A DNA stretch of 64,000 nt from Acidilobaceae archaeon (GCA_038897215.1 JAWAWX010000001.1:448001-512000); one strand, 5' to 3'; positions 2,394-50,390 are shown, counted from the stretch's first letter. Numbers and translations are program-made. Notes: a model not told the origin generated them from the sequence alone.

Positions 2394-3727
2394 CCTCTCT
2401 GCTCTCTCTTGAGCCGGAAGAGAGTAGAGTACTTGCCCAGGAGCCTCCTCCAAGACTCTCTAACGCTCCAGTATTTGCAGAGCTCTCCAACACTCTCCTC
2501 TCTGCAGTCCACTCTCCCCCCGGCTTTCTCGAAGACCCCGGAGCCCAGGTACGATACCCCCTCTGGGGGGCTCTTGCTCTTGTAGGGTAGCAGGTTTAGA
2601 GGCATGTCTTTAGGCGGGCTCCTCAAGTAGAGAGCCGCTGAAGCCATGGCCGCGGCTATCTTCGCTTCTAGAGTCGAGGCTCTAGCCTTGTAGCTCTCCT
2701 CTCCGACCATCACCAGCGAGGCTCCAGCCTCAGCCGCTAGGAACGTGAGGATGGCTGTTGATGCGTGTGTATCCACGTCTGCTAGCTCTATCGCGTTGTT
2801 TAGCCCAAGCATTACCGGGTAGTCTCTGCAAGCCTCTTCGCTGGAGAGAGCTCTAGCCGCTAGAAGGCTCTCGAGAGAGCCGGGTGATAGAGGTGGCTGC
2901 ATGACAGGGTCTAGTATCACGCTGAGAGAAGCCTTTGATGCAAGCTCGCAAACGCGAGCCAGCTCTCTAGCTCTCAGCCTCCAGTCTCCGAGCTCTCTGG
3001 GTATCACCACATAGAACACCTCGTCTCCAAGCCTAGCCACAGCCTCGAGTAGAGTATCGGCTGTGAAGCTCATCGCTACACTAGCTCCGGCCTCGACTGC
3101 CTCGGCTACAGCATCAAGACTGGGAGAGTCGACGGCTACGGGGGCCTCGATTGAGTCGAGGACTCTCTCGACTACTCTGAGGACGTCTCTGGAGCCAAGC
3201 GAGTAGTCGAAGCTAAGCACTACAGCATCAGCGCCAGCCCAGACTCTGTACTCCGCTTCTCTAGCCACGCGCTCAGCGTCAGCAGGCGGCTCTACATAGA
3301 TGTCTGAGAGGACAGCGATAGGCGGAGGGCGCTTTGGGACTCGCGCGTCACTCGCTTCAACCCACACTGCTCTAGCCGCTATCTCCTCGAAGACCTCCTC
3401 GAAGACTCTCGAGACTACCGCCTCGTCTAGAGCTCTCTCAGCAGGCTTGGAGGGGCTGAGAGAGTCGACGCTCGCTCTCCTCAAGATCCTCGGGAGTAAC
3501 CTGACCGCTGTAGGCCCCTTCACGACTCTCTCCAAGCCGCTGTAGTCGAAGGGGCTGAGCCCGGGGGCTATGGCGTAATCGTAGCTCAAGCCTTTGAGAG
3601 CCTCAGCGACCACAGCTGGGTGGAGAGACTGGACTCTAACGACTAGAACCTCGTAACCTGCTCCTCTAAGCTCCTCGACGACCGCTTGATCTACCCCAGC
3701 GGGGCCCGAGACGAGAGCTAGCCTCGA
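2390..3727 (-). CDS. archaeal dihydropteroate synthase-like (pterin-binding TIM barrel) protein
   Basis: GADAVVL, PVAVDS, ILDPV and GLNNAIELADVDT motifs. The ORF track starts at GTG 3613, but the frame is open to 3733 and the RBS points to a TCG at 3727 (see findings). Confidence 0.8.
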   Translation of the reverse strand, partial: SRLALVSGPAGVDQAVVEELRGAGYEVLVVRVQSLHPAVVAEALKGLSYDYAIAPGLSPFDYSGLERVVKGPTAVRLLPRILRRASVDSLSPSKPAERALDEAVVSRVFEEVFEEIAARAVWVEASDARVPKRPPPIAVLSDIYVEPPADAERVAREAEYRVWAGADAVVLSFDYSLGSRDVLRVVERVLDSIEAPVAVDSPSLDAVAEAVEAGASVAMSFTADTLLEAVARLGDEVFYVVIPRELGDWRLRARELARVCELASKASLSVILDPVMQPPLSPGSLESLLAARALSSEEACRDYPVMLGLNNAIELADVDTHASTAILTFLAAEAGASLVMVGEESYKARASTLEAKIAAAMASAALYLRSPPKDMPLNLLPYKSKSPPEGVSYLGSGVFEKAGGRVDCREESVGELCKYWSVRESWRRLLGKYSTLFRLKREQRG

Positions 3728-3806
3728 GCCCGGTCACCGAGAGTGAGCATCAGTACTCTCAACATAAAAACCCTATCTAGCTAAGGTATCTCGATAGGGC
3801 TGAGGC

Positions 3807-4757
3807 TTGGCTGAAGAGACTGGAGGGAAGAGGCTGAGGATTAGAGGAGAGCCGGGAGAACCGAGCTACAAGCAAGTAGCCGAGCATATGAGGAGATACG
3901 CTGAGATGAGGAGAGCTGCTGCTAGAAACTTGGAGAAGGTGAAGCACGTAGTCGTAGTAACAAGCACTAAGGGCGGTGTGGGCAAGAGCATGGTGACAGT
4001 CAACCTAGCGGCTGCTCTAGCACTCAGAGGGCTAAAGGTCGGAGTCTTCGACATAGACTTCCACGGCCCCTCAGTCCACAAGCTTCTAGGGCTTCCAACG
4101 GGTATGGGTTTACCTGTAACCGTCGACGGGTCCATAGTCCCGGTTACTGTTCAACCGCTAGGCATTAAGGTTGTATCTATAGGCTTGTTGCTCAAATCAG
4201 ACGACGAGGCTGTAGTCTGGAGAGGCCCCATTAAGGCATCTGCTGTAAACGAGCTCCTCTCATACATAGACTGGGGAGACTTAGACATGCTCCTAGTCGA
4301 CACGCCACCAGGGACCGGAGACGAGGTCCTATCACTGCTCCAGCTACTCCCGAGAAAGATATCTGGCATAGTGCTGGTAGCTACTCCCTCGGAGATAACG
4401 AGAGTAGTGGCGAGGAAGACCGCTACTCTAGCTCGCCAGCTTAGAGCACCGCTTCTCGGAGTCGTTGAGAACATGAGCTACTTCAGGTGTAGAAGCGGAG
4501 AGATAGTCTACGTCTTCGGAGAGAGCAGGGGGGAGGCTTTCGCTAGAGAACTCTCCACGAGATTCCTCGGAGCCATACCTCTAGACCCTGAGCTGAGAAG
4601 ACTGGGAGACCAGGGAGTGCCCGTTGTGCTCGCAGCTCCCGAGAGCGAGTCTGCGAGAGCGTTCGCTAGCATAGCCGAGAAGCTACTACAGGCTCTGGAG
4701 GAGGAGGAGAAGAGTAGAGAGGTAGGAGAGGAGCCTTCTGAAGAGGGTGAGCGCTAG
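3807..4757 (+). CDS. Mrp/NBP35 family ATPase (Fe-S cluster carrier)
   Basis: KGGVGKS deviant Walker [32 protein letters not shown]. Confidence 0.93.
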
Positions 4758-5017
4758 AAGACTCCCAGGCTCGCTGCTAGGTCTCTCGCTCTATACTCTG
4801 GAGCTAGCTTGACGTACGCTTTCTTCTCTCCTCTCGGTGTGATCAAGGTTCTAACCTTCTCTACCTTCACGTTGAACATTCTCTCCACAGCTCTCCTCAC
4901 GTCGTGCTTAGTAGCTCTCCTATCTACGATGAAGACTAGAGTGTTCTGGGTATCCATGAGTCTGGCTACTTTCTCGGAGTAGTGGGGTCTCAGGATCACC
5001 TTAGGCCACTCACTCAA
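4754..5017 (-). CDS. rpl23: 50S ribosomal protein L23
   Basis: [28 protein letters not shown]; follows L3 and L4. Confidence 0.97.
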
Positions 5018-5829
5018 AACCCTAGCACCTCGAATCTCTTAGCTAGTAGCTTTAGAGACTCGCTAGTCACGACTGCTAGCCTGCCGGGGACTCCTCCAGG
5101 AGCTAGCTGTAGAACATTAACGAAGCTCGGGGTAGCCACGTCTACTCCGGGGAGGCTTGCTACAGCTCTAGCGAATGGAGCTCTGTGGTCTTCGAGTATG
5201 AAGAGGATGCTCTTAGGCTCCTTGTACCTCCTCCCTCTCATCTTGCCTCTACCAGCTCTCCACCTTGTTCTCTCAGCTGCTCTCTCTACGTCCTCGTAGA
5301 CTCCTAGCTTCTCTAGGAGCTCTACAGCATCGCTAGTCTTCGAGATTGCATTGAGAACCGAAGAGTCTATAACCACGGGGACTTTGGCTACACTGAATCT
5401 GTGTCCTCGAGTTCTCACCAGCTCCGCGTCGGCTGTGGCTGCGAGAGCGCTCGCTGTCCCCAGGATCTTCTCCTTCTTGTTGACTCTCTCCCACAGGATC
5501 TTCTCTACTCTCGGCGGGAAGGTAGCCATGCCTCCTCTAGCTGAGCCTATGAAGGCTGCTCTCGTAGAGCCCTTTATCCTAGGGACTCTAGCGAGACCGT
5601 AGCCTATCCCCAGGCTCTCAGCCGTCGTCCTCTTGCCAGCCATGGGGTCTCTCCCCTTGGGCTGTAGCCGCATAGTGAACTCGCTCAAGAAGACTCTCCT
5701 TATCAGGTCTGCTCTGACGGGGAGCCTGAAGACCGCTGGTAGCTCTACCTCTCCTACTACTTCACCGCTAGCGTTGTAGAGAGGGACTGAGATAGGGGGC
5801 TTGAGGTATAGAGCTAGGTAGGTAGCCAT
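5014..5829 (-). CDS. rpl4: 50S ribosomal protein L4
   Basis: [39 protein letters not shown]. Confidence 0.97.
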
Positions 5830-5845
5830 GAGGGCTCCACCTCTT

Positions 5846-6883
5846 CTAGGCTCCCTGCTTGCTCTCTAGGCTCACGTAGGTTATCTTAGGCTGCCCGAGC
5901 TTGAACTTCAGGTACCACTTGGGCGGTCTTATAGGCCATCTTAGAACCACAGGTCTCTTGACCGCTCCAGCTATGCTACCAGCTAGGACTACGTAGTCGG
6001 ACTCGACTAAGCCGTAGTGCAGAAACCCCCCAGCTGGCGTTATCTCGTAGCCGTTAGAGCCTATGGCGAGAATCCTCTTATTGTACTCAGTCCTCCTGTG
6101 GAAGCCCATCTGGCCCGGCTGAGGAGCCTCCCACCACGTCCCGACTGCTGAGAAACGCGCGCCAGGGCCGCTCCTGCTACCCTTTCTGTGCTTGTGCCAT
6201 CTCGGGAGCTCTTTGACACCCCACCTCTTGACAACTCCCTGGAACCCCTTGCCTTTAGTTACTCCTATCACGTCTACAGGCATGCCTGGAGAGAAGACAT
6301 CGCTTACTCTGACCTCCTTACCGAGCTTGGAGACAGCGTACTCGAAGAGAGCACTGATATCGCTCACTCCACCCACCTTGACTTCTATGATATCAGGCTT
6401 CTTCTTCTCCAACCCTCCAGCTAGCTTAGGCTGAGAGGCTAGGATTAGCCTGACGTCTACCGCTTTGGGGAGGAGTGCTTCCAGCTTCTTTAAAGCCTCT
6501 TCTGTGCTCTTGACGCTGAGAGTCGAGATCCTCCTCTCTATCTCGAGCTCTCGAGGAGGCTGAACCCAGGCTTCGCCTAGAGTGTATAAGCCTCTATCGA
6601 CATCTCTCCCGTAGATTCTGACTGCTAGAGCGACCATTGGGGGGGTCTCGACTACAGTAACGGGGACGAATACCTCTCTGCCGGCTGTAGGGCTGGTTGG
6701 GATGTCGTCTACCACGAAGACGTGAGTCATCCCGACCTTGTAGCCAAGAAAAGCTAGCAGAGTTGGCTTGCCTAGATTGACTTCAGGCCAGGACTTGACT
6801 CTAGGGACTATACGAGAAGCTCTCTTACGCGGCGAGAAGCCTAAGCTCCCTCGTCTAGGCGCATGCTGCTTCCTAGCGCCCAC
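5846..6883 (-). CDS. rpl3: 50S ribosomal protein L3
   Basis: PRRGSLGFSPRKRA, GYKVGMTH, TKGKGFQGVVKRWG, GQMGFHRRTEYNKR. Confidence 0.98.
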   Translation of the reverse strand: MGARKQHAPRRGSLGFSPRKRASRIVPRVKSWPEVNLGKPTLLAFLGYKVGMTHVFVVDDIPTSPTAGREVFVPVTVVETPPMVALAVRIYGRDVDRGLYTLGEAWVQPPRELEIERRISTLSVKSTEEALKKLEALLPKAVDVRLILASQPKLAGGLEKKKPDIIEVKVGGVSDISALFEYAVSKLGKEVRVSDVFSPGMPVDVIGVTKGKGFQGVVKRWGVKELPRWHKHRKGSRSGPGARFSAVGTWWEAPQPGQMGFHRRTEYNKRILAIGSNGYEITPAGGFLHYGLVESDYVVLAGSIAGAVKRPVVLRWPIRPPKWYLKFKLGQPKITYVSLESKQGA

Positions 6884-6944
6884 GCTAATACCCCTCAGGG
6901 GCTCTGCGAGTCTCTGAGCCTAAAAAATCGAGCCCCTCTAGCTA

Positions 6945-7865
6945 CTAGTCTTCTAGAACGCTCGTGTTAGCTATTGCTGCGAGCGTTGCTACGATAGCCT
7001 CCTCCGTCCTGACCGTCTCCGTCCCCTGGTGTGGGATAGTGTTGACTATCGCGTCGAAGAGAGAGTGGTCGCTGTACTCGTAGGGGCACCTGTAGGGGCC
7101 CCCGAAGACTAGAGCTAGCTTCCTCCTCTTCTCCACCCCCTCTCTGAGTCTACCGGCTTGCCGGGAGAGGCAGTCACCGTATTTGCTGGCTAGAACGACT
7201 AGCGCTCCTCTCCTCCTCAGGTAGCTCACGACACTAGCTAGGTCTCCGAGGCTTCTTACCTTGAAGCCTGTGTATACGTCTCCCCAGCTCGCCTCCTCTA
7301 GCTCGTAGAGCCCTCTTTTCGCTGAAACTACTCGAGCTACTACTATAGACCCGGGCTTGTGCACACCTCTAAGAACCCCGTAGCCGGGCTTGCCTAGATA
7401 GGCTCTACACGAGTCTCTGTAGCACTCCTCGACGAATACCTCGATGATATCGCCTTCTCTCAGCTCTTCTGGAGCTAGGTGATTGTATGTCTTTAGTGGC
7501 GGCAGGACGCCTGATGCTCTCAACTCCCCGGTTAGCGGGACAGCCTTCTTCCTGAGATGAGGAGGGATTAGCATGTAGCGAAGATAGGAGACTAGGAGTC
7601 TAGCGTCTCTCTCGGCTGTATCAGGATCTCTATAGACTATGCACTCATCGACCCTGAACGCTGCGAGAGCTCTCCCAACAAGCCCGGCCTTGACGGCTTT
7701 CAGCACGAGAGTCTCCTCAACACTCAACACGCTACCCGGCAAAGCGACAGCAAGCCACACACTCCTCCTACGAGGAGGCCAGATGAAGCAACCCACGCTA
7801 CTCCACGCTCCTACTCGAGCCCGTAGAGCCGCCTCTAGAGAAGCTGATGAGAGATATGAGAGCAC
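6945..7865 (-). CDS. SPOUT-family RNA methyltransferase (DUF171 type)
   Basis: PPHLRK, GVLPPL, FGGP, NTIPHQGTETVRTEEA; sits directly upstream of rpl3. The true start is probably the downstream GTG before CFIWPP. Confidence 0.88.
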   Translation of the reverse strand: MLSYLSSASLEAALRARVGAWSSVGCFIWPPRRRSVWLAVALPGSVLSVEETLVLKAVKAGLVGRALAAFRVDECIVYRDPDTAERDARLLVSYLRYMLIPPHLRKKAVPLTGELRASGVLPPLKTYNHLAPEELREGDIIEVFVEECYRDSCRAYLGKPGYGVLRGVHKPGSIVVARVVSAKRGLYELEEASWGDVYTGFKVRSLGDLASVVSYLRRRGALVVLASKYGDCLSRQAGRLREGVEKRRKLALVFGGPYRCPYEYSDHSLFDAIVNTIPHQGTETVRTEEAIVATLAAIANTSVLED

Positions 7866-7882
7866 GCTACCTAGAAGCAGGG

Positions 7883-8017
7883 CTACTTGCCTTTCTGCTT
7901 AGGCTCCTTCTTAGCCTTCTCTCTAGCCTTCTCTTTGCTCGAACTCGCTGACTGCTCTAGCTCTCTAGCCGCAGACTCCTTAGTGTGAAACAGCGTAGTC
8001 TTCTGCCTACCCCCCAA
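7883..8017 (-). CDS. small Lys/Glu-rich protein, 44 aa (not in ORF track)
   Basis: TTG start 5 nt after a GGTGA RBS, AT-rich TATA-like element near 8053-8060; MGGRQKTTLFHTKESAARELEQSASSSKEKAREKAKKEPKQKGK. Confidence 0.65.
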   Translation of the reverse strand: MGGRQKTTLFHTKESAARELEQSASSSKEKAREKAKKEPKQKGK

Positions 8018-8151
8018 GCCTCTCACCCTCCGAGGCGGGAGAAGGGGGAGCTATTATATTCGTGAAGTAGCTCTACTCCTGCTCTCTCGTCTCTAAGATG
8101 GAGGGGAGAGAAAAGGGGAGACTCGCTGTCTCTGAGGGCTCTCTGAGTCTT

Positions 8152-8577
8152 CTAGGCTCCAAGGATGAGGTGAGCTATCGCGAAGTCTACTACTACCATG
8201 ACGGCTAGCCCTAGGAGAGCTAGCGCTAACGCTCTAGCTCCGGGGTTGTTGAGAGCTCCGCTGAGGCTCTCTCCTAGCTGTAAGCGTCTGCTAGCTAGCG
8301 TTAAGCAAAGCCAGACGGCTACCACAGCGAAAACCATGGGGACTCCTACGATCACGACTTCAGAGAATAGAGCCGAGATGCTTGCTGTCGGTAGGAGAGA
8401 CTCTCCTAGAAGAGCGTGCTTAACAGCTAGCAGGATAGAGCCTCCTAGCATCATGACGGAGAGGTCGCTCAAGCCTCTTCTACTCGAGGCTCTTGAGGCT
8501 AGTAGTAGGAGAGCCCCCACGAGTAGGGGTGGGATGAAGCAAGCCATAGATGCACCAGACCCATACGTAGAGTGCAC
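8152..8577 (-). CDS. small integral membrane protein
   Basis: about 4 hydrophobic segments; likely start at MACFIPP. Confidence 0.7.
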   Translation of the reverse strand: MHSTYGSGASMACFIPPLLVGALLLLASRASSRRGLSDLSVMMLGGSILLAVKHALLGESLLPTASISALFSEVVIVGVPMVFAVVAVWLCLTLASRRLQLGESLSGALNNPGARALALALLGLAVMVVVDFAIAHLILGA

Positions 8578-8650
8578 CGGTAGAGACTATAAGCTTTACC
8601 AGGAGTCAGCGGGGAAGCTTCGAGCCCTCGAGAGGAGAGAGACCGTGGAG

Positions 8651-8690
8651 AGAGAAGCGGGGGGCTACTCGGGGAGCCCCCCGTTTCTCT
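8651..8690. terminator. 16-bp inverted repeat at the 3' end of the ESCRT-III gene
   Basis: AGAGAAGCGGGGGGCT (8651-8666) and AGCCCCCCGTTTCTCT (8675-8690), one mismatch, 8-nt loop. Confidence 0.5.
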
Positions 8691-9354: not shown

Positions 9355-9465
9355 CTCGAGCCGCCACACTAGCTCTCTCCGAGACCCCCTAATCCAGAGA
9401 GAGACCTCATAGGACGGGCTCTCTCCCCTAAATACCCAGTGTTACTACTCCCCCCGTGAGGAGAG

Positions 9466-10194: not shown

Positions 10195-10208
10195 CTACTC
10201 TCAGCACG

Positions 10209-11972: not shown

Positions 11973-11977
11973 CCGCC

Positions 11978-12859: not shown

Positions 12860-12864
12860 AGAGG

Positions 12865-13023: not shown

Positions 13024-13737
13024 TTATTCTTCTTCTGCTTCCTCAGCTTCTGGTGCCTCCTCGAGCTCTGCCCTGACTAGCGCCTTGATCTCCCTCAAGA
13101 TCTTGTCTGCTTCTCTGTACTCGACGTTAGTGGCTCTGGCTAGGAGCTGGCTTATGTTGGTCTTCATGAAGTCGTCTAAGCTTCCAGTATAGTCCATAGC
13201 GGTCCTCCTGAGCACTAGTGGAGTAGGCTCTAAGACAGCTCCTCTCACTATAGCTTTGGCTTCGTTGACGGGAGTCGCTATTAGAGCGCCAACATCTCTT
13301 CCCTTGTATCTCACTAGGTACACTATGTCTCCGCTAGCTAGCTCTATGGCTTTCTCCGCCTCGAAGGCTATCGCCTCAGCTACAAGCCTCTTAGCTATGG
13401 ATTTGACGTCGCTAACCACTCTATCGACTTCGGCTTGAGGAACAGACCTCCAGAGCTGTACTTGGAGCTTTTCTAGCTCCCAGATTATCCTGCCCTCTTC
13501 TACCCTGTAGTCGACCGCTACTCTGACCACGTCTCCCTTCTCTGTCTTCAGTCTATCGACGAGGATCTCGTAGAGTATCCTGTTAAGCTCTCCCGCTGCT
13601 CTAGCTACCTCCTGGGAGGTTATCTCGCCGCTCTTGACTAAGTCTCTTGTCTGAGCGAAGAGCGTTCTCCTAACCTTGTCCGCGTAGGCTCCAGCGATAA
13701 CTAGCCCTGTTCTGAGAGTTCTAGTGTGAGAAGTCAT
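13024..13737 (-). CDS. DUF2258 / ThermoDBP-related ssDNA/RNA-binding protein
   Basis: LRTGLVIAGAYADKVRRTLFAQ, RAAGELN, KGDVVRV signature. Confidence 0.88.
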   Translation of the reverse strand: MTSHTRTLRTGLVIAGAYADKVRRTLFAQTRDLVKSGEITSQEVARAAGELNRILYEILVDRLKTEKGDVVRVAVDYRVEEGRIIWELEKLQVQLWRSVPQAEVDRVVSDVKSIAKRLVAEAIAFEAEKAIELASGDIVYLVRYKGRDVGALIATPVNEAKAIVRGAVLEPTPLVLRRTAMDYTGSLDDFMKTNISQLLARATNVEYREADKILREIKALVRAELEEAPEAEEAEEE

Positions 13738-17175: not shown

Positions 17176-17289
17176 CCCTGAGAGACACCCCCGAGGAGGC
17201 TTTCTGCGAGAAGCAGAGGTATTAACTTGGAGCTCTCAACGCTTTTTATAGGTCTCCACGCTGATACTGTTAGAGGAGGCGGCTGAAGT

Positions 17290-17745
17290 ACGAGCAGAGC
17301 TCGAGACCTCCTCGAGAAGAGATACGAGGAAGAGGTTAGGAGGATAGCTAGATTCTGGCCTGTGGAGATGGTCACTCTTAGAGAGGCATCGAAGGGGAGA
17401 AGGTTTGTCAAGCTTCAGACGGGCGATGTCCACGAGTTCGACTCAAGCGAGGTTGGTGAAGTGCTTTCCAGAGTCCCCGTCTACCTCTGGGATCTAGTCA
17501 AGCTACCCATAATCCTGAAGTATAGGAGGTTCGATGACGGGACTTGCGAGGTGAGAGTTGAGGGAGACGTGTGGCAGAAGAGGCTGGTCGAGATTCTGCT
17601 AAAGGGCTCCATGTCTTCAACGGGGATCGAGAAGCTAGACTCTGAAAGCTTCAGAGCTCTCCTCTCGAGATACAAGACTCTAATCTTCATAGGCTTAGCT
17701 GGCTTAGAGGAGTCGCTTGAATCGAGTAGAGTAGAGGAGGCTTAA
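17290..17745 (+). CDS. DUF61 family protein
   Basis: VTLRE..G..HEFD..E, VKLPIIL pattern. The ORF track starts at 17362, but the frame extends to an ACG at 17290 (see findings). Confidence 0.75.
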   Translation, partial: TSRARDLLEKRYEEEVRRIARFWPVEMVTLREASKGRRFVKLQTGDVHEFDSSEVGEVLSRVPVYLWDLVKLPIILKYRRFDDGTCEVRVEGDVWQKRLVEILLKGSMSSTGIEKLDSESFRALLSRYKTLIFIGLAGLEESLESSRVEEA

Positions 17746-17788: not shown

Positions 17789-19123
17789 TTGCACAAAGAG
17801 AGATTCATAGAGGAGATCGTCCGGGGCTCGCGAGGCCTCATAGGGAGCACTATCAGAGTCTGCGGCTGGGTTCACAGAATCAGAGACATCGGGGGGGTCA
17901 AGTTCGTAGTGCTGAGAGATAGAACAGGCTTCATCCAGGCTGTCGCCAAGAGAGGAGAGGCTCCCGAGAGCGTTCTCGAAGTGTTCTCCGGCCTGAGAGA
18001 GGAGTCCGTGGTGTGCGTAGAGGGGGTTCTAAGAGAAGCCCCTACGAGAGAGGGCTGCGAGATAGCGGTCTCTAGCGCTCGAATCCTCTCGACCCCCATC
18101 GAGCCTCTCCCACTAGACGTGAGGACATCGAGGAGAGCCGGTCTAGCTACCAGGCTGAGGTATAGGTGGCTCGACGCCAGGAACCCGGAGGTTCAGTCGA
18201 TATTCATCCTCAAGGCGTGGGTCGCGTCTAAGTTCAGAGAATACTTCGCCAAGCACGGCTTCGTGGAGGTCTTCACACCAAAGATCGTGGCCGCTGGCAC
18301 CGAAGGCGGCGCCAACGTGTTCCCGGTGATATACTTCGGGAGGACCGTCTACCTCGCTCAAAGCCCCCAGCTCTACAAGCAGATGGCTGTCTTAGCGGGC
18401 TTCGAGAGAGTCTTCGAGATAGGCCCCGTCTACAGAGCTGAGCCTCATAACACCACGAGGCACTTGAACGAGTACCACTCTCTAGACATAGAGGTCGGGT
18501 TCATCGAATCCCACGAGGATGTCATGAAGTACGTGGAGGGATTCTTCGTAGAGCTCTCTAAATCAATGGCTGAAGACGAGCGCGTAGCTAGAATACTGGA
18601 GATGCATGGAGTCGAGCCTCCTCGAGCTCCACCCGGGGGGTTCCCTAGGATAAGGATGAGAGAGGCCTACGAGATCCTGGAGAGAGAGTACGGGAAGAGA
18701 GTGCCCTACGGGGAGGACCTTGATAGCGAGGCAGAGAAGCTCATAGGCGAGTACGCTAGAGAGAGGTACGGCTCGGACTTCGTCTTCGTGACAGAGTACC
18801 CCTGGAGAGTCCGCCCATTCTACGCTATGAGGAAGGAGGACGAGCCAGACTGGACTCTCAGCTTCGACCTGATAATGAGAGGCGTAGAGGTCGCGACCGG
18901 GGGGCAGAGAGAGCACAGATACGAGAGGCTCCTCGAGAACATCAAAGACAAAGGCTTGAACCCCGAGGACTTCCAGTTCTACCTAGACTTCTTCAAGCAC
19001 GGAGCCCCGCCACACGGGGGAGCGGGCATCGGCCTAGAGAGGATAGTGATGCAGACTCTGGGACTGCAGAACATAAGAGAAGCCAGGCTCCTGCCGAGAG
19101 ACCTCGAGAGGCTAACCCCCTAG
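17789..19123 (+). CDS. aspS: aspartyl-tRNA synthetase, probably non-discriminating (Asp/Asn)
   Basis: OB fold GWVHRIRD (His typical of non-discriminating enzymes), LAQSPQLYKQ, YRAE..HLNE, PPHGGAGIGLER. Confidence 0.96.
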   Translation: MHKERFIEEIVRGSRGLIGSTIRVCGWVHRIRDIGGVKFVVLRDRTGFIQAVAKRGEAPESVLEVFSGLREESVVCVEGVLREAPTREGCEIAVSSARILSTPIEPLPLDVRTSRRAGLATRLRYRWLDARNPEVQSIFILKAWVASKFREYFAKHGFVEVFTPKIVAAGTEGGANVFPVIYFGRTVYLAQSPQLYKQMAVLAGFERVFEIGPVYRAEPHNTTRHLNEYHSLDIEVGFIESHEDVMKYVEGFFVELSKSMAEDERVARILEMHGVEPPRAPPGGFPRIRMREAYEILEREYGKRVPYGEDLDSEAEKLIGEYARERYGSDFVFVTEYPWRVRPFYAMRKEDEPDWTLSFDLIMRGVEVATGGQREHRYERLLENIKDKGLNPEDFQFYLDFFKHGAPPHGGAGIGLERIVMQTLGLQNIREARLLPRDLERLTP

Positions 19124-21439: not shown

Positions 21440-21461
21440 TTTTGTCTTAGTTTTGTCTTAG
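21440..21461. repeat. tandem 11-bp repeat TTTTGTCTTAG x2 in the tRNA-Arg/cdc6 divergent promoter region
   Basis: exact copies at 21440-21450 and 21451-21461. Confidence 0.7.
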
Positions 21462-21514
21462 CTGGTGATACTAGGGTTCTCGCTCGGTCTTCTCTCCCGC
21501 TTCTCCTACTTCTC

Positions 21515-22774
21515 TTGGAGCCGGTGGTTTCTGTGGAGGTTGTCGATGAGATCTTCAGGTCTGCTTTGAGGTCTAGAGTGTTCAGAGATAGAGAGAAGCT
21601 TCTACCAGACTACGTGCCCGAGGTCCTCCCCCACAGAGACGCTGAGATTAGGAGGGTTGCCTCAGTTCTAGCTCCTGCTCTCAGGGGGGAGAAGCCGAGC
21701 AATCTCTTCATCTACGGGCTCACGGGGACGGGGAAGACTGCTGTGGTCAGGTTCGTGTTGAGCAAGCTAGAGCAAGCTGCTAGAGAGGCAGGGGCTAGAG
21801 TGAAGAGCGTCTACGTGAACGTCAGGTATAGAGACACTCCCTACAGGGTCTTGGCTGAGATAGCTGAAAGCGTTGGCGTGAGGATACCGTTCACTGGGCT
21901 CTCTACGAGCGAGGTCTTCGATAGGATGGTTGGGAAGATGAGAGGCTCGGGGTACGTCTACGTCATTGTGCTAGACGAGATAGACTCTCTAGTCAGGAGG
22001 CACGGCGACGACCTCCTCTACAAGCTGACAAGAGTGAACACCCAGCTAGATGGGGCGAAGGTGTCGCTGATAGGGATAACGAACAGCATAGACCTAGTGG
22101 AGAACATGGACCCGAGGGTTAAGAGTAGCTTGAGCGAGGTGGAGACAGTGTTCCCGCCGTATAACGCTGACCAGCTCAGAGACATACTGGAGGCTAGAGC
22201 TAGAGAAGCGTTCGTAGATGGAGCGCTACACGAGGAGGTCATACCTCTCTGCGCAGCGCTAGCAGCTAGAGAGCACGGAGACGCTAGGAGAGCACTAGAC
22301 TTGCTTAGAGTAGCCGGGGAGATAGCGGAGAGGAGCGGCGCTAGCATAGTCACGCCGGAGCACGTGATGGCTGCTCGCGAGGAGATCGAGAGAGACAGAG
22401 TAGCCGACGTCGTAAGAGTGCTACCGCTACACAGCAAGCTAGTAGTGCTAGCAGTCATCCTAGCCACGGGGGGAGGGCTCGGCTACACGACCACAGGGGA
22501 GATATACGATGCCTACAGGAAGCTTACTCAAAGACTCGGCATAGAGACTGTCACAATGAGGAGAGTCAGCGGGATACTGGCAGAGCTAGACATGGCCGGG
22601 CTCCTAGCTGGCCGGGTCGTGAGCAGAGGCAGGTACGGGAAGACGAGAGTAGTAGAGCTGAAAGCAGACACACAACTTATACTTAAGACTCTAGCAGAAG
22701 ACCTTATGATAGAGGAGCTAGTAGAGGATGTGTCAAGAGAAGCGCTCGGAAAGCGTGGTAGTAGCTTGCGATGA
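21515..22774 (+). CDS. cdc6: Orc1/Cdc6 replication initiator (Cdc6-1 type)
   Basis: LLPDYVPEVLPHR, YGLTGTGKT, VLDEID, HGDARRALDLLR, C-terminal winged helix SRGRYGKT. Confidence 0.97.
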   Translation: MEPVVSVEVVDEIFRSALRSRVFRDREKLLPDYVPEVLPHRDAEIRRVASVLAPALRGEKPSNLFIYGLTGTGKTAVVRFVLSKLEQAAREAGARVKSVYVNVRYRDTPYRVLAEIAESVGVRIPFTGLSTSEVFDRMVGKMRGSGYVYVIVLDEIDSLVRRHGDDLLYKLTRVNTQLDGAKVSLIGITNSIDLVENMDPRVKSSLSEVETVFPPYNADQLRDILEARAREAFVDGALHEEVIPLCAALAAREHGDARRALDLLRVAGEIAERSGASIVTPEHVMAAREEIERDRVADVVRVLPLHSKLVVLAVILATGGGLGYTTTGEIYDAYRKLTQRLGIETVTMRRVSGILAELDMAGLLAGRVVSRGRYGKTRVVELKADTQLILKTLAEDLMIEELVEDVSREALGKRGSSLR

Positions 22775-43815: not shown

Positions 43816-43892
<77 letters not shown>

Positions 43893-44002
43893 GTTTGTTG
43901 ATCACCTACTCTCAGCTCATCGAGGCTCTCTCTTTCCCGCCACGCTAGAGCTGTTATAGCGCGAGCTATGCGTTTAGGAGCAGAGAGCTTGCTGGAGATA
44001 GG

Positions 44003-44272
44003 CTAGGGCCACTCCTTTTTCTCTATGACGCTCTTCATGTAGGGCGCTGTGCCCGAGGAGGGAGTGTAGGCTCCGCCCGCCCATCTGCTACCACACTTCC
44101 TGCATACCCAGATGCCTACAGATACTCTCCGCACTGAGCCCTGCTTCCCGCAGAAGGGGCATGTGTGTGGTGACCTCAGCTTTACTAGTATGTCTCTCAC
44201 TCTCCTCCTAACGCTTAACCCGTATCTTGCTCCATAGCTTCCTGCTGGACCAACTACCTTGGTTCTCCCCAT
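44003..44272 (-). CDS. rpl37ae: 50S ribosomal protein L37ae
   Basis: GARYG, CPFC..CRKC, AGGAYTP. Confidence 0.96.
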   Translation of the reverse strand: MGRTKVVGPAGSYGARYGLSVRRRVRDILVKLRSPHTCPFCGKQGSVRRVSVGIWVCRKCGSRWAGGAYTPSSGTAPYMKSVIEKKEWP

Positions 44273-44276
44273 GCCT

Positions 44277-45113
44277 CTACCCTCCTCCGCGGAGAGCTGA
44301 CTCGAGAGCCTTAAAGTACTCTCCCGAAGCTCTCTTAGCTAGGCTGATTGCTGCTACTAGCTCTGATTGAGTGAGACCCCCGCTTCCTGTTTTCTGGAGC
44401 CCTACTATGTTTTGGTCTTTGTCTAGCGATACGACTAGCCTGTAGTCTGATATTATCTCTTCCTCGAAGTTGGGGTCGACTACGAGGTAGTCTGCTATCT
44501 TGGCTACCGTGACTGAGACCACGAGTTTATTCAAGTTCACTCTATCCCCTTGTCTCGTCCTATCTAGTATTATGTCTCCTGTCTCGCTCTCCTCGATGAA
44601 GGGGAGCCTCGTCGTGGCTAGTGCTGCCACAGTTGCTAGCATGCTTGCATCGAAGATGTTACCGTCGTGACTAAGCACATACACATCTACCCAGAGAATC
44701 CAGGCTTTCTCGCCTGTTCTTATCGAGAGAGACTTGAGGTCGATAGCTCTAGGCTCTCTAAGGCTCCTATCGACTACCCTAGATACCTCGATCGCGTTCT
44801 CGTCCGGTGGTCCTGGCTCACTAACAGGGGAGGCTATGGGGACTGTCTCGACGTTTACGATTATCGCTCCCTCGTCGGGCGTGTCTTTAAAAGGACTCCC
44901 TATCTCGGCCTTGACTCCAGCTAGAACCTCTGTGTTCCCGAGTCTTACTAGAGCCGAGCCTTCCGCTTTCTCTATGACTCCCGTCTTGATCTCTACTGTT
45001 CTTGGTGAAGCGAGACTCCTGCCGTCAGGCCTTAGGCCTCTCTCGTAGAAGCTCAGGTATGTCCTAATCTTCAAGCTGGGGACTACGGGTACTCTGAATG
45101 GTGTTATGCTCAA
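44277..45113 (-). CDS. rrp42: exosome complex subunit Rrp42
   Basis: RPDGR, AEGSALVRLG, PGPPDENAIE, HDGN. Confidence 0.96.
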   Translation of the reverse strand: MSITPFRVPVVPSLKIRTYLSFYERGLRPDGRSLASPRTVEIKTGVIEKAEGSALVRLGNTEVLAGVKAEIGSPFKDTPDEGAIIVNVETVPIASPVSEPGPPDENAIEVSRVVDRSLREPRAIDLKSLSIRTGEKAWILWVDVYVLSHDGNIFDASMLATVAALATTRLPFIEESETGDIILDRTRQGDRVNLNKLVVSVTVAKIADYLVVDPNFEEEIISDYRLVVSLDKDQNIVGLQKTGSGGLTQSELVAAISLAKRASGEYFKALESALRGGG

Positions 45114-45117
45114 AGAG

Positions 45118-45846
45118 CTACACCTCCGAGGCTACTGCTTCATACTTTCTTCTCAAAGCCTCTTTCTCCATCTCGACCAGGTTCTTGATAGCATTGAGAG
45201 CCATAGATAAGCCTTTATCGAGTTCTTCTTCTGTGAGTACTCCGTTTAGCTGGAGAAGTGTTATCAAGCCGATATCTGGCGCTGCTGCTACGGGAAGGTC
45301 TGCCTGACCGCCTGAGTCCTCGACTTCGTCTATGTCTAGCACTAGAACCCCCTCGATCTTGCCCACAGCTACGCCAGCTATAAGAGCTCTCATCGGGATA
45401 CCGGCATCAGCTAGAGCTAGAGAGGCTGCTGTAACGCCGGCCGTTCTAGTACCCCCGTCTGCTTGAAGTACTTCTACGAAGACGTCTATGACTGTTCTCG
45501 GGTACTCAGTGAGCAGAATGACTGGCTCTAGAGCTTCTCTCACGACCTTCGAGAGCTCTATCTCCCTCCTTGTGAGCACAGGGCTCTTTCTCTCAGCTGT
45601 AGAGAAGGGAGCCATGTGGTATCTGACTCTGAGAACCGCTCGGTCCGGTAGAATCATAAACCGTTGCACGGGCTCTCTAGGCCCGTAGACAGCCGCTACC
45701 ACCTTAGTCTTACCGTACTCCACTATAGCCGAGCCGTCCGCGTTAGGGATCACTCCAACCTGCATCTTTACTGGACGCATCTCCTCTGGTCTTCTCCCAT
45801 CGTGTCTCAGCCCTCGCTCATCTATGAGTCTAACCCTAGTCTTCAT
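45118..45846 (-). CDS. rrp41: exosome complex exonuclease Rrp41
   Basis: [33 protein letters not shown]. Confidence 0.97.
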
Positions 45847-46538
45847 AACCCTCGAGCCCTCCTCTCCTCCTCTATCATCTTAGCTATTCTCTCCGTCAGC
45901 CCTGTTGTGTGAGCTTCTCTCTCTATGTATTTTATGGCTGTAATAGCTACTATCTCGTGAGCTACACTAGGGCACTCGATGTGGACTCTCCCGTTGACCG
46001 CTGGGAATATCTTGCACTCCGTCTTCTCCTCGAGTATCGAGAGCATGCTTCTCTTCTTACCGATTACCCTCGGGATTTTATTATGCTGGATCTCGATGAC
46101 TACCCCGCTCGCGATCTTCCCCAAGCCCTCTCCCTGGACTGTTAAGGTGGGTTGGCGAGTCTTATCGAAGAGCTGGACTCTAGCTCTCACATAGTCTCCA
46201 GGCTTTAGTAGCTTGAGTAGATCGTCTGAGGCTGGATTGGGAGGTCTCCCCAACACGTCTTGAGCTAGGAGTATGGCTGTGTAAGGCGAGTTAATGTCTA
46301 TCTGCCAGTATGTGAGGCTAAAGGATTCTACGAGACCTATGACTATGTCTCCCGGCTCCGGGATATAGACGGATTTGAGGGGAACGAAGCCTACCTCTCC
46401 TCCCTCTCGCTCAACTAGAATACCTGGGATAGTCGCGATCTTGCTTCTAGCTAGCTGGATCACATAGGGGGGTCTAGCTTGAGTGCGCGGGTCGACCTCG
46501 TCTCCAGGTAGCACGATTCTACCGTATAGCTTGCTCAA
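45843..46538 (-). CDS. rrp4: exosome RNA-binding subunit Rrp4
   Basis: S1 domain ([11 protein letters not shown]) plus KH (IPRVIGKK), EAHTTGLT. Confidence 0.95.
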
Positions 46539-46540
46539 GA

Positions 46541-47242
46541 CTAGGCTACCACCTTCACGTTTACTGAAGCCTTCCCCTTAGCTATGCTCTGAATCTTGTT
46601 GATCACCTCTAGCTGCATTCCAGCCGGGATCTCTAGCTCTAGCTTGACGCCCCCGCTACTGAGCCACTCGAGCTTCTTAACCTGCCCGAGTCTCTTAGCC
46701 TCACTGGCCACTCTGCTCGCTACATCAGGAGGGACTTCGACCTCCAAGAGAGCCTTGGCTATCTTTATCGGTATAGCCTTAGAGAGCTTAGACACTATCT
46801 CCAGAGCTTGGCTCTCAACATCTCTATATAGGTCTACGCCGATACCAAGCTCCTCCATCAGAGACTCTATCCTACTCTCGGGAATGGGGAGCTTGGACCT
46901 AGGGTCTATGGCGTTTCTCGCTATGAATGCTACTATCTTCTTCCTCTTAGCTTCAATGAGCCTCCTCCTCTCCTCCTCGGTCAGCTGAATCATCCCCTCT
47001 TTTAGGATCCTCTCTGCTATAGCTCTCACGTCTTCAGTCCCGAAGGCTTTGCGTAGAGATTCGGGGCTCGCCTTTAAGCCTTTTCTGCTATCCTTGAAGA
47101 CAGTGTCTGTCCAGAGAATCTCGTTTACGTCTACCTTCTCTCCTTCTCTAAACCTAAACGCTAACTCCGGCTTCACCAGTATCTCGAATCTCTCCCCTCT
47201 GACCTCCATCCAGGCTATGACAAAGCTCTGTTTTTTCGACAT
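46541..47242 (-). CDS. ribosome maturation factor SBDS/Sdo1
   Basis: GERFEILV, KAFGT, IDPRSKLPIP..RIE, IPAG; ATG at 47242. Confidence 0.95.
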   Translation of the reverse strand: MSKKQSFVIAWMEVRGERFEILVKPELAFRFREGEKVDVNEILWTDTVFKDSRKGLKASPESLRKAFGTEDVRAIAERILKEGMIQLTEEERRRLIEAKRKKIVAFIARNAIDPRSKLPIPESRIESLMEELGIGVDLYRDVESQALEIVSKLSKAIPIKIAKALLEVEVPPDVASRVASEAKRLGQVKKLEWLSSGGVKLELEIPAGMQLEVINKIQSIAKGKASVNVKVVA

Positions 47243-47280
47243 CGAGGACACCGTGCTGTCATACTTCTGCGATAGTATCC

Positions 47281-48060
47281 TCACTTAGATTCGAGTAGCT
47301 GGCTTCTCATCTTGCCTATAAGGTCTTTGAGTTCCTCTACTGAGAGTTTTCTAAACCTTCTAGTCTTGACGTCTATATAGCCGACTTCTACTAGCTGATG
47401 GAATTCCTCGATGAGCACCTCTTTGCGCTCTTCTCCTGTGGCTATCCTACTCTTGAAGAGTGCTTCTATCACTATTCTAATCATTTCATCGATGGTCAAG
47501 TCTTCTCTGTATATCTTCTCGAAGAAGCTGTTCACATATGCATCTCCGGAGCCTATGGCTACAGCGTTATAGCTGAAGTACTGACCTCCAGGGTCTGTTC
47601 TAAAAAGCCTAACTGACCCGTCTGGGTTGACTCCTCCGAATAGGAGAGCGACTCCGAAGGGTCTCACTCCGCCGTGCTGCGTGTATGCCTGCTTTATGTC
47701 GGCTATGTATTTAGCGAGAAGGTCTACTGTAGCTTCCTCGCCGTATATTAGTCTATGTCTGAGAGCTAGCTGGCGAGCCACGTCTATGAGTATCCTGCCG
47801 TCGCTACCCATTCCTGCGAACGCTACAGCTATGTGGTCGTCTATCTTGTATATCTTCTCAATGTTGACAATATCTAGTAACGGTGAGATCTTCCTCTTCT
47901 CAGCACCCAGCACTACTCCGTGAATACTCCTGATGCCTACACTCGTCCACCCCTTCTTTACGGCCTCGAAGGCGTACCTTACTTGATAGAGGTCTCCCTC
48001 AGGGGAGAATATCGTGGTAGCTCTATCGTAAGCCATTGCCTGAGGGGTTGGAAAGACCAT
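47281..48060 (-). CDS. psmA: proteasome alpha subunit
   Basis: YDRATTIFSPEGDLYQVRYA, GGVRPFGV, TDPGG. Confidence 0.97.
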   Translation of the reverse strand: MVFPTPQAMAYDRATTIFSPEGDLYQVRYAFEAVKKGWTSVGIRSIHGVVLGAEKRKISPLLDIVNIEKIYKIDDHIAVAFAGMGSDGRILIDVARQLALRHRLIYGEEATVDLLAKYIADIKQAYTQHGGVRPFGVALLFGGVNPDGSVRLFRTDPGGQYFSYNAVAIGSGDAYVNSFFEKIYREDLTIDEMIRIVIEALFKSRIATGEERKEVLIEEFHQLVEVGYIDVKTRRFRKLSVEELKDLIGKMRSQLLESK

Positions 48061-48223
48061 ACCCGACCACCTATCCTACCTCCCTCCTTCGTCTAACCCC
48101 TAAGGTGGGATTTATCCTCGGCGTTAAATTACTTTTGCTAAGTGGGGGGGATTTCGGTTAGCCAAGAGAGAGAGTATAGCATTAATATTGGCGACCCCAT
48201 CTCTGCTAGTGGAGGAGCAGAGT

Positions 48224-48700
48224 TTGGAGAAGCTAGCTGAGTACATAGAGTACCTTGTTTTAGCATTAGTCTCGCTCATCGGCGGCGCTGTAGGGGGAGC
48301 GTTGGTCGCGATTAGATTGAAGTCTAAACCTGTGAGGATAGAGCTATCTGGTCTCTCTGCTTTCGAGAAACGCTCGAGCAGGAAGAGGAGGTATATCGTG
48401 TTCGAAGCTACCACTACAGAGCATCTAGCTACAAGCGAGATAGCCGAGGCCTTGGAGAGCACTGCTAGACGACTGCTTGGAGACCTCGGGATCGCGAAGG
48501 GAGGGTTTAAGCTCATAGACTACGACCCGCGCTCGAGACGCGGGATTCTAAGAGTTAAGAGAGACTACAAGTGGCACGCTCTCGCAGTGCTCTCACTAGT
48601 TCGATCCATAAGCGGCAAGAGAGTCCTCCTGGTCCCCCTCTTCACCACGGGGACTCTTCGAGGAGCTAGGAGGAGAGCGGGCTTGGCTAGAAGCTCCTAG
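48224..48700 (+). CDS. RNase P protein Pop5/Rpp14 with N-terminal hydrophobic segment
   Basis: RKRRYIVFE, LLGDLG, GILRV, TTGTLR; TTG 48224 after a GGAGG RBS. Confidence 0.88.
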   Translation: MEKLAEYIEYLVLALVSLIGGAVGGALVAIRLKSKPVRIELSGLSAFEKRSSRKRRYIVFEATTTEHLATSEIAEALESTARRLLGDLGIAKGGFKLIDYDPRSRRGILRVKRDYKWHALAVLSLVRSISGKRVLLVPLFTTGTLRGARRRAGLARSS

Positions 48701-49926
48701 GCTCTCCTGGCTCTAGCCGCGACTATCTTCACCACGTCTCCGTCTCTCAGCTTGTAGTCCTCGCCCACCTTCTGCTTGGTCTTAGCGTTCACAGCGTAGA
48801 GGAAGGAGTCTCCTAGCTCTGAGTGAATGCGGTAAGCTAGCTCTCTAGCCGTAGTCCCCTCGGGGACTAGGAGCACGTCGGGCAGGACTCTACCCTCTCT
48901 ATCAGCGTACCTGACGGGGTCCTCGACGGGGTAGACTGCTATCATGCGTAGCTTGTCGAAGACGAGAGCGTTTATAGCGTCCTGGACGCCCGTCGAGCCC
49001 CACTTCTTCAGCACGTTCTCGCGAATCACCTCGAGCACCTTGAAGCTCTTAGAGTCGAGCGAGCCCGTGACCTCGAAGCCGGGGTCTCCCGGTATGTATT
49101 TCACCAAGTTCTTGCTAGCCGCTTTCCTCAATATCAGCTCAGCTATGGCGCTAGTGGGGATCACGGGTATATCTCTGAAGGCTTCTCTGAGTCTCTTTAT
49201 GTTGTCCTCTGCCTCGGGGATGTCGGCTTTGTTGGCTACTATGACCATGGGCTTCGATACTCTCCTAAGCTCTGAGACGAACAATCTGAGGTCGCCGGAG
49301 CTCCAGCTCGATAGCTTCCTGCTAGCTAGTCCCGATGCTTCAAGCGCCTCGACTACATGCCTTTTAGTCACGCTTAGCCCCGAGAGTCTCTGCGCTAGAG
49401 AGCCCGCTACGTCTGCTGCTCCAGAGGTGTCAACGTATCTGGCTAGCTTATCCCAGTCTCTCGAGACTATGCCGAACATCCACTCCTCGAACTCTCTGAT
49501 CATCGCTCGCGCTTCCTCAACTGGGTCGTATGCTCCCGGCCCCGAGAACCTCCCCTCCTCGTCCGTGAAGCCACTAGCGTCCACGACGAGTAGAAGCCCG
49601 TCCGCTCTCCTCACGTGGTCTAAGAACATGTTGCCCAACCCTCTACCCTTATGAGCTCCCGGAACTAGCCCTGCTACATCGATGATCTTGACTGGGATCA
49701 TCCTCCAGCCTCCTACGCAGACGCTGTTGAGCGCGTTGCAGGAAGAGAGTCCGAGCTCTACGTGAGCACACCTCTTCTTAGCATACGTTACTCCACTATT
49801 GGGCTCTATTGTGACGAAGGGTCTGTTATCTATAGGGACATCTATGAGGGTCGCTGCAGAGAAGAAGGTAGACTTCCCGACATTAGTCTTGCCCACTATC
49901 CCCAGCAGTATATTGGAGGCCTCCAA
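48697..49926 (-). CDS. ychF: YchF/Obg-like GTPase with TGS domain
   Basis: GKTNVGKSTFF, PFVTIEPN, DVAGLVPGAHKGRGLGN.FL, NKAD. Confidence 0.95.
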   Translation of the reverse strand: MEASNILLGIVGKTNVGKSTFFSAATLIDVPIDNRPFVTIEPNSGVTYAKKRCAHVELGLSSCNALNSVCVGGWRMIPVKIIDVAGLVPGAHKGRGLGNMFLDHVRRADGLLLVVDASGFTDEEGRFSGPGAYDPVEEARAMIREFEEWMFGIVSRDWDKLARYVDTSGAADVAGSLAQRLSGLSVTKRHVVEALEASGLASRKLSSWSSGDLRLFVSELRRVSKPMVIVANKADIPEAEDNIKRLREAFRDIPVIPTSAIAELILRKAASKNLVKYIPGDPGFEVTGSLDSKSFKVLEVIRENVLKKWGSTGVQDAINALVFDKLRMIAVYPVEDPVRYADREGRVLPDVLLVPEGTTARELAYRIHSELGDSFLYAVNAKTKQKVGEDYKLRDGDVVKIVAARARRA

Positions 49927-50078
49927 GGGAGCTCTCTCCGAGCAGAGTCTACGCGATCCCGGTATATATCCACCTGAGAGACAGCCTAGCGCTCTTCGCG
50001 AGACGAGAATACATCGCTCGAGCCCCTAGAGATATATATAACGCCGAGGTGTGTTAGCGTCTTGAGAGGTGAGTTCCA

Positions 50079-50390
50079 ACGTTTAGAGCTGTTATCAGAG
50101 CATATGCTCCGCAAGCCGAGACGTTACTTGAGGGGCTTAGAGCCTTGAAGGACAGTATGGCGGAGCTCTGCGATATTGTTGATAGGCCTGGATGGATTCT
50201 GATGGGTTGCGAGGACTCTCTAGTAAAGGCTGTCATAGAGATGAGGACTAGAGAAGCGCCTAGACTAGTCCCCGAGGCGTTCCTAATAGTCGTGGTAGAG
50301 AGTGAGAGTTCAAAAGCTCTAGTCGATAAGGCTAGGAGAGTCGTCTCCACGCTAGGGCAGAGCGGGCTAGCCGCTGTTCTAGAAGTCTAA
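50079..50390 (+). CDS. hypothetical protein (about 103 aa)
   Basis: ORF track starts at 50145; frame is open to an ACG at 50079 lying 6 nt after GAGGTGA, TATA at 50031-40. Confidence 0.6.
   Translation, partial: TFRAVIRAYAPQAETLLEGLRALKDSMAELCDIVDRPGWILMGCEDSLVKAVIEMRTREAPRLVPEAFLIVVVESESSKALVDKARRVVSTLGQSGLAAVLEV

Follow-up and report, generated by a model that had tools for sequence, protein, structure and literature searches.

Initiation of translation at near-cognate codons has been described in eukaryotes, for example at the ACG codons of yeast ALA1 and of Sendai virus C′ (reviewed in Kearse & Wilusz, 2017, PMC5666671). The eukaryotic Met-tRNAi reads codons that are one mismatch away from AUG, with an efficiency that falls in the order CUG > GUG > ACG > AUU (PMC5666671). 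Archaeal initiation uses eukaryote-type factors (PMC6237735, PMC7531240), and a review of it lists AUG, GUG and UUG only as starts (PMC7531240). In the DNA analyzed here, a stretch of 64,000 nucleotides (nt) from an Acidilobaceae archaeon (GCA_038897215.1, JAWAWX010000001.1:448001-512000; hereafter, the window), three genes probably begin at ACG or TCG: a pterin-binding-like (DHPS-like) gene, a DUF61 gene, and a gene for a 103-residue protein without a Pfam family. In a literature search, we came across no description of archaeal genes that start at ACG, although this search was incomplete and prior publication is possible.

Bacteria and plant organelles provide two further points of comparison. 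The initiators of NCBI translation table 11 include AUU, AUA, AUC, and CUG, but not ACG, and infC of E. coli starts at AUU. When all 64 codons were measured in E. coli, AUA, AUC, AUU, and CUG reached 1-2% of AUG, while ACG fell into the 0.1-1% class, and green fluorescent protein started at ACG carried an N-terminal Met (Hecht et al., bioRxiv 10.1101/063800). In plant organelles, C-to-U editing makes AUG from ACG, as in ndhD and psbL (PMC4727281, PMC6302522).

The three archaeal genes share one layout, which had been pointed out in a preliminary description of the window and is confirmed directly in the sequence: a TATA-like box, a Shine-Dalgarno (SD) sequence and, 6-7 nt further on, an ACG or TCG. 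The window comprises bases 448001-512000 of a single-contig genome (G000; 1,159,524 bp, 53.9% GC). This is the genome of a small-genome crenarchaeon from hot springs, whose AspRS has its closest named relative in "Sulfolobales archaeon Acd1" (63% identity). Since its 16S rRNA ends in ..GGATCACCTCC, the full SD is GGAGGTGA. ATG, GTG, and TTG each start about one third of the genes, spacings of 5-7 nt predominate at supported canonical starts, and SD runs of at least 5 bases (spacings 4-9 scanned) precede 31% of these starts versus 4.5% of interior codons. At sites 1, 2, and 3, the SD matches span 5, 5, and 7 contiguous bases at spacings of 6, 7, and 6 nt, respectively. The TATA centre is located 28-31 nt before the SD at all three sites, and therefore the predicted leader begins just upstream of the SD. 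The canonical genes that had been named for comparison were also verified (GGTGA-6-ATG at 13737 and GGTGA-5-TTG at 8017, both on the minus strand, and GGTGA-7-TTG at 17789).

None of the three sites has an ATG, GTG, or TTG from the upstream in-frame stop to the conserved segment. The preliminary description also mentioned a TGA in frame two codons before the NCG; it is indeed present, but in sites 1 and 3 it belongs to GGTGA and does not count as independent evidence, because GGTGA followed by a 6-nt spacing yields it automatically. Read-through of this TGA from a start further upstream was considered and rejected, as none of the sites has an in-frame start codon in the interval from the TATA box to the TGA. 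Beyond the SD, the three sites have no shared sequence context.

The 22-38 codons that precede the first ATG, GTG, or TTG had been called protein-like, and this is borne out by their conservation in relatives and by their coding-type evolution. In six-frame searches over 30 relatives, orthologue matches extend to residues 3-5 of each stop-to-stop frame, and the orthologue starts do not coincide with the downstream canonical codons; they align, as TTG, GTG, or CTG, with the NCG position itself or with a codon no more than two away from it. A closer comparison is provided by G001, a genome of the same genus that was fetched whole (1.10 Mb) and forms 1153 pairs of reciprocal best hits with G000. 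Each extension shows 6-12 synonymous changes relative to G001, third-position differences dominate, and the in-frame identity is 20/37, 12/22, and 14/21 at sites 1, 2, and 3, versus 7-10 in other frames. Because of this frame-specific identity, the third-position differences and the synonymous replacements, we conclude that selection acts on the extensions and that they are translated. GC content swings within the family, from 53.9% in G000 to 44.6% in G001, which is 9 points at a median protein identity of 71%, and down to 30% in G017, a complete genome of the same family (1.55 Mb) that was used as a control and is an imperfect one due to its low GC.

Site 1 lies on the minus strand. Its TATA-like box GTTTTTAT (3771-3764), read from the sequence and presumably a promoter element, is centred about 29 nt upstream of the SD GGTGA (3738-3734), which is complementary to the 16S end in 5 contiguous positions and is separated by the 6-nt spacer CCGGGC from TCG (3727-3725), the proposed initiation codon of the DHPS-like gene. 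Counted from TCG, this gene (2390..3727) encodes 445 residues with a weak Pterin_bind match (18.9 bits) that is under the Pfam cut-off. The first canonical codon, GTG 3613-3611, is found only 38 codons past TCG, and those 38 codons are conserved protein; between the TGA and the conserved RLALVS there is nothing but CCG GGC TCG. The TCG aligns with the TTG start of G007, another of the relatives, and the TTG start of G001 is placed 2 codons further upstream. Compared with G001, identity in the other two frames of the extension is 7/36, and codon positions 1 to 3 account for 13/13/26 of the differences.

A frame of 10 codons, MLTLGDRARG, which overlaps both the SD and the TCG of site 1, runs from an out-of-frame ATG at 3750-3748 (minus strand) to TAG 3720-3718. 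This ATG is probably upstream of the predicted transcription start; if transcribed, it would form an upstream open reading frame (uORF) over the site-1 start. A frameshift from it into the site-1 frame was rejected on two grounds, namely that LALV follows 1-3 residues after the N-terminus in the orthologues and that the ATG lies upstream of the predicted transcription start.

At site 2, on the plus strand, the TATA-like box TTTTTATA (17243..17250), a promoter candidate read from the sequence, is followed by the SD GGAGGCGG (17275..17282), with 5 contiguous matches to the full SD, and, 7 nt later, by ACG (17290..17292), the proposed initiation codon of the DUF61 gene (17290..17745; 151 residues from ACG). 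The first canonical codon is GTG 17362-17364, 24 codons past ACG, and there is none between TGA 17284-86 and this GTG. The match to the Pfam DUF61 profile, covering its positions 4-127, begins at residue 12 of the ACG-started protein. In other genera, DUF61 orthologues start with ATG or GTG 8-15 residues before the conserved ..RKYRE..YWP motif, where G000 offers only AGT ACG AGC AGA GCT CGA GAC CTC CTC GAG AAG. The G001 orthologue likewise lacks a canonical start and has GAGGGTG-N7-CTG instead. Differences from G001 by codon position are 4/6/12 in this extension.

Site 3, also on the plus strand, has the TATA-like box ATATATATAA (50032..50041), again read from the sequence with a presumed promoter role, and the longest SD, GAGGTGA (50066..50072), with 7 contiguous matches, located 6 nt before ACG (50079..50081). 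This ACG is the proposed initiation codon of the gene for the 103-residue protein (50079..50390), in which the 22 codons ahead of the first canonical codon, TTG 50145-50147, are conserved. Codon for codon, ACG TTT AGA GCT GTT ATC AGA GCA matches TTG TAT AGA GCC GCT ATC CGA GCA of G001, and the ACG aligns exactly with the G007 start GTG TAT AGG. The codon-position differences from G001 are 5/4/10.

Whether such codons are favored throughout the genome depends on how the SD is defined. Behind GGTGA only, with triplets counted at a spacing of 5-8 ahead of the first canonical start, ACG and TCG are each found once in G000 versus 0.64 and 1.1 expected, and the expected excess of NCG is thus not seen. 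This count was rejected as decisive, as it ignores most of the SD and allows no interior control at spacing 6, where the TGA is in frame. The same list contains many ATA, ATT, ATC, and CTG codons where the next canonical codon is distant, and an ATT start ahead of a Tat-type SRRDFVKLS signal shows that non-canonical starts are functional in G000. Sites that resemble an SD by chance dominated a test of the SD that made no use of orthologues (121 selected versus about 144 expected from the interior rate), with near-cognates of ATG other than AAG and AGG still enriched, 18 versus 7.5. A raw screen yielded 106 genes with G001 homology at least 8 codons upstream of the first canonical start, mostly artefacts: rRNA-operon open reading frames, a tRNA, overlapping upstream genes conserved in another frame, promoter conservation, and stops within the frame. 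As such artefacts inflate the raw extension counts, a codon-blind selector was adopted. Within orthologue-conserved extensions that lack a canonical start, it picks any codon that is in frame and follows, at a distance of 5-7 nt, an uninterrupted SD run of 5 or more bases, with the overlap with other genes filtered at ≤0.25.

The selector returns 17 codons in G000 (CTG 4, ACG 3, TTA 2, one each of TCG, ATA, GCG, and GTT, and 4 others), 19 in G001 (CTG 5, ACG 3, ATT 2, TTA 2, one each of TCG, ATC, ATA, and AAG, and 3 others) and a single gene, with ATT, in G017. Pooled over G000 and G001, the 36 codons comprise 9 CTG (P = 4e-7), 6 ACG versus 0.54 expected (P = 1.5e-5), 5 ATA/ATT/ATC, 4 TTA, 2 TCG, and 1 GCG; the set of CTG, ACG, ATH (ATA, ATT, or ATC), TCG, and TTA accounts for 26/36 versus 4.4 expected (P = 1.5e-16). 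The control triplets AAG plus AGG reach 1/36 versus 2.2 expected, and GCG plus CCG 1/36 versus 1.0. In G001 alone, which lies outside the selection made in the preliminary description, ACG and TCG make up 4/19 (P = 9e-4). Once the full SD and orthologue-supported N-termini are applied, ACG and TCG are therefore enriched over AAG and AGG, as had been predicted.

At codon position 2, the selected codons include 9 NCG, 2 NAG, and no NGG, although NAG and NGG are commoner in the background. The idea that a canonical start has had its middle T replaced by C thus holds as a position-2 preference, but it describes only one part of a wider repertoire. Nor is the phenomenon specific to NCG: CTG outnumbers ACG, and ATA, ATT, ATC, and TTA starts occur in both species, with TTA, ATT, and ATC starts among those conserved between them. 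By a rough count, at least 17-20 genes of G000 (1.5-2%) have a non-canonical start.

Three of the roughly 6 supportable ACG or TCG starts of the whole 1.16-Mb genome are found in the one 64-kb window (5.5% of the genome), a clustering that may be due to chance plus the attention of the preliminary description. The window also holds a further possible non-canonical start at 21440-21520 on the plus strand, the GTT at 21476 in GGTGA-N7-GTT. It lies in a frame of 465 codons whose first canonical start comes 13 codons later, and the stretch that begins with this GTT, LARSSLPLLLLLL, is hydrophobic and resembles a signal peptide.

The pattern recurs beyond the three original sites, both elsewhere in G000 and in the independent assembly of G001. 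In G000, ACG 1018476 (AGGAGGTG-N7) stands opposite a G001 TTG, TCG 754931 of an nfo-like gene (GAGGAGGTGG-N6) also opposite a TTG, and, tentatively, GCG 310122 opposite a GTG. In the reverse direction, one ACG of G001 is opposite a GTG of G000, another ACG opposite a CTG, and a TCG opposite a GTG. One start, ACG 626351, is ACG in both species, behind GGTGG/GGTGA-N6; ten other genera have a canonical start at this position or 1-4 codons upstream, and the G007 GTG is exactly there.

Other unusual starts were observed in the same comparison. In two genes, a TGG aligns exactly with the TTG start of the other species (G000:C1 1038847, minus strand, and G001 C1 ~86445, plus strand), with TGG GTC TTA AGA GGT GGT versus TTG GTC TTA AGA GGT GGT and GGTGGTGG-TGG TTA GGA versus GGTGGTGG-TTG TTA GGA. 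These pairs may be further position-2 variants, and no well-spaced SD was scored there. A cimA/leuA-like gene (G000:C1 ~780720-780800, plus strand; orthologue on C5 of G001) reads GTG GTG GTy TAG AAA TCC .. VEVLDTTLRDG in both species, which thus share TAG as the fourth in-frame codon, with no near-cognate codon after it; the TAG might be read through, re-initiation might take place behind a uORF of 3 codons, or the start might be another one. The genes at 94269 and 974214 have a TAG directly ahead of conserved sequence in both genomes.

The relaxed near-cognate initiation suggested in the preliminary description is supported by the absence of canonical starts, the SD spacing, the starts of the orthologues, the codon enrichment, and the replication in a second genome, all of which, like the anatomy and conservation of the sites, are directly observed. 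Translation of the three genes thus probably begins at ACG or TCG by SD-anchored near-cognate initiation with the normal initiator tRNA. In the proposed mechanism, a short leader, begun a few bases before the SD, would pair with the 16S 3′ end, and this pairing would bring the codon that follows at 6-7 nt into the P site, where the ordinary Met-initiator tRNA (anticodon CAU) would be accepted despite the mismatch. Because ATG, GTG, and TTG each serve about one third of the genes, codon position 1 seems to be effectively unread. The working start signal would then be NUG, with the one-mismatch codons CUG, NCG, and NUA/NUU/NUC as weak starts. ACG, TCG, and GCG would be the position-2 members of this group, in which C is tolerated opposite the anticodon A, but A and G are not. 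Met would presumably be inserted at ACG and TCG, with an output below the ATG level. Near-cognate starts are a genus-wide habit, present in both species, and start codons appear to drift between canonical and near-cognate at one and the same site (ACG to or from TTG, GTG, or CTG, TCG to or from TTG or GTG, and ACG retained as ACG).

Several points weigh against this interpretation. That ribosomes start at exactly these codons is something we infer from the sequence, and at site 1 the AGG right after the TCG (spacing 9) is a possible actual start. TCG and TTA pair with the CAU anticodon at one position only, which is very poor pairing. No genomic cause for a relaxed start check was found in aIF1 and the initiator tRNA, the two components examined: aIF1 (SUI1) is present in G000 and G001 with a normal score and aligns closely with its relatives, and the initiator tRNA is standard, with A1, a GGG/CCC anticodon stem, and CAT. 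The pipeline also has a background: for G017, it still yields about 12-15 raw cases in 750 gene pairs, of which several are rRNA open reading frames, and a properly spaced SD precedes only one gene. Finally, 3 of the 4 ACG or TCG matches of G000 in the formal test are the post-hoc sites of the preliminary description itself.

Loss of aIF1 as the cause of relaxed checking is rejected, as the gene is present and conserved. No second initiator-like tRNA with anticodon CGU or CGA was found among the 40 intron-less tRNAs, the set that was scanned to the exclusion of intron-containing tRNAs, and tRNA-Ser(CGA) is an ordinary elongator. According to work cited in PMC6237735, aIF1 of Saccharolobus destabilizes complexes on non-AUG mRNA; near-cognate starts are for this reason probably weak and may set low expression. 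The aIF1 of the genus (G000:C1:983374-983592, minus strand) has CGNLPPE in both species, versus CGGLPPE or CGGLPPD in five relatives, and a C-terminal Y versus E in relatives, and is otherwise highly conserved.

Compared with the described systems, these starts combine features of several. They resemble eukaryotic near-cognate initiation in their codon ranking (CTG 9 > ACG 6, and AAG plus AGG 1) and in factors, with aIF1, aIF1A, and aIF2 being homologous to the eukaryotic set; in eukaryotes, AAG and AGG are reportedly the poorest near-cognate starts, a result ascribed to Peabody in 1989. They differ in that the start is placed by SD-anti-SD pairing at a fixed 6-7 nt, whereas eukaryotes scan with Kozak context, in that ordinary housekeeping genes have the codon as their only start, with no uORF or alternative isoform, and in that GUG and UUG are fully canonical and even two-mismatch codons (TCG, TTA) occur. 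With the bacterial non-canonical starts, they share the SD anchoring, the possibility that weak starts tune output, and the use of CTG and ATH. Unlike in E. coli, however, ACG ranks second among the non-canonical starts, these starts concern about 1.5-2% of the genes, and proofreading is by aIF1 and not by IF3. From canonical SD-led initiation in archaea, they differ in a wider codon repertoire, while the SD, spacing, short leaders, and factor genes are the same.

Among the alternatives, the one that survives best is that these are decaying starts in a reduced, drifting genome, in which recent T-to-C changes have hit former TTG or ATG codons and the genes are little or not translated from there or are being lost, without any adaptive or systematic use of NCG. 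We regard it as unlikely, and less so for TCG than for ACG. The small genome (1.16 Mb) does carry other lesions, such as the internal in-frame TAG of a ThiI-like gene (G000:C1 ~730150-730230, plus strand; ..CGT GGT TAG AAA CGC.. versus GGC AAT AAA GCA in G001), a tandem duplication of ~50 bp (the unit contains CCGCGACTAAGACTTTCACCTCG) that breaks a GlmS-like gene (G000:C1 ~50000-50130, minus strand) which is intact in G001, and in-frame TAGs ahead of conserved regions. T-to-C pressure is plausible because G000 lies 9 GC points above G001, the pairing of TCG with the initiator anticodon is very poor, and both TCG 754931 and TCG 3727 are opposite a TTG in a relative. Decay is nevertheless difficult to reconcile with ACG 626351, which the two species, with a median protein identity of ~71%, have both retained together with its SD and 6-nt spacing, with the purifying selection on the extensions downstream of the codons, and with the AT-richer sister G001, which has equally many ACG, TCG, and CTG starts. 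Moreover, AAG, AGG, and GAG are not found, though mutation could produce them just as easily and they are much more frequent in coding sequence, which points to selection for codons that still work. As to the ThiI-like gene, its frame in G001 runs 111 codons further upstream, and the TAG of G000 stems from a nonsense mutation or an error, or else it is read through.

C-to-U editing of the mRNA in the style of plant organelles, which would convert ACG to AUG, UCG to UUG, CUG to UUG, and GCG to GUG before translation, had been raised as an alternative in the preliminary description and is, in our view, highly improbable. It would fit the 18 of the 26 SD-picked near-cognates (CTG 9, ACG 6, TCG 2, GCG 1) that become canonical by one C-to-U change and the strong preference for C over A or G at codon position 2, and it would remove the problem of the one-base pairing of TCG. 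As in the established precedent of chloroplast ndhD (PMC4727281, PMC6302522), a genomic ACG is found where relatives have ATG in a gene that is otherwise intact. Yet TTA (4), ATT (2), ATC (1), ATA (2), and AAG (1) among the SD-selected starts cannot be repaired by C-to-U, and a second mechanism would still be needed for TTA, ATT, ATC, and ATA, several of which are conserved and one of which precedes a Tat signal. In a six-frame search, the single-contig G000 gave no match to PF00383 or PF14437, versus matches in 12 of 14 control genomes; the marker-gene completeness of G000 is 89.7%, and the absence of the deaminase fold is thus not proven. The corresponding search for DYW (PF14432) is uninformative, as it gave no match in the control genomes either. 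The three sites also have no sequence context in common besides the SD. Editing finds no positive support. To our knowledge, no C-to-U editing of mRNA has been described in archaea. A mixed variant, in which an enzyme outside the known deaminase fold edits the C-containing starts (ACG, TCG, GCG, CTG) and TTA and ATH are ordinary weak near-cognates, seems equally improbable.

There is still less to be said for a start at the downstream canonical codon with non-coding conservation upstream of it, be it a promoter, a leader, or an overlapping gene in another frame, for which we see only a very slight chance. Explanations of this kind did account for many cases of the raw screen (off-frame conservation, rRNA open reading frames, tRNA, a conserved TATA region). 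At the three sites, in contrast, the overlap fraction is 0 (sites 1 and 3) or within the filter of ≤0.25 (site 2), identity is frame-specific, differences fall on third positions, and homology from distant genera and the Pfam DUF61 profile cover the segments. Assembly or base-calling errors, with a true T and thus ATG or TTG, are scarcely credible, for although a single C separates each of the three codons from a canonical start, random errors would not strike three start codons, the independent G001 assembly has ACG (3), TCG (1), and CTG (5) elsewhere plus the ACG of the 626351 orthologue, and no motif shared by the three sites marks a methylation-linked systematic error.

Near-cognate initiation by the ordinary initiator tRNA has consequences for the annotation of the genus. 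As gene finders accept only AUG, GUG, and UUG, about 1.5-2% of its proteins are cut short by 10-70 residues or missed, at the cost of the beginnings of domains (DUF61), a Tat signal, and membrane anchors, among other things. The hierarchy, with CUG and ACG on top and AAG and AGG avoided, is nearer to the eukaryotic than to the E. coli one. Across species, ACG, CTG, TTG, and GTG replace one another at the same start site, which suggests that the strength of the start codon is an evolvable dial of expression, and SD-N6-ACG, TCG, or CTG versus AAG or AGG are natural test substrates for the in vitro initiation systems of Saccharolobus and Pyrococcus. If true, the finding would mean that the near-cognate property of the eukaryote-type machinery (aIF1, aIF2, and Met-tRNAi) extends to TACK archaea, where it would operate alongside the SD.

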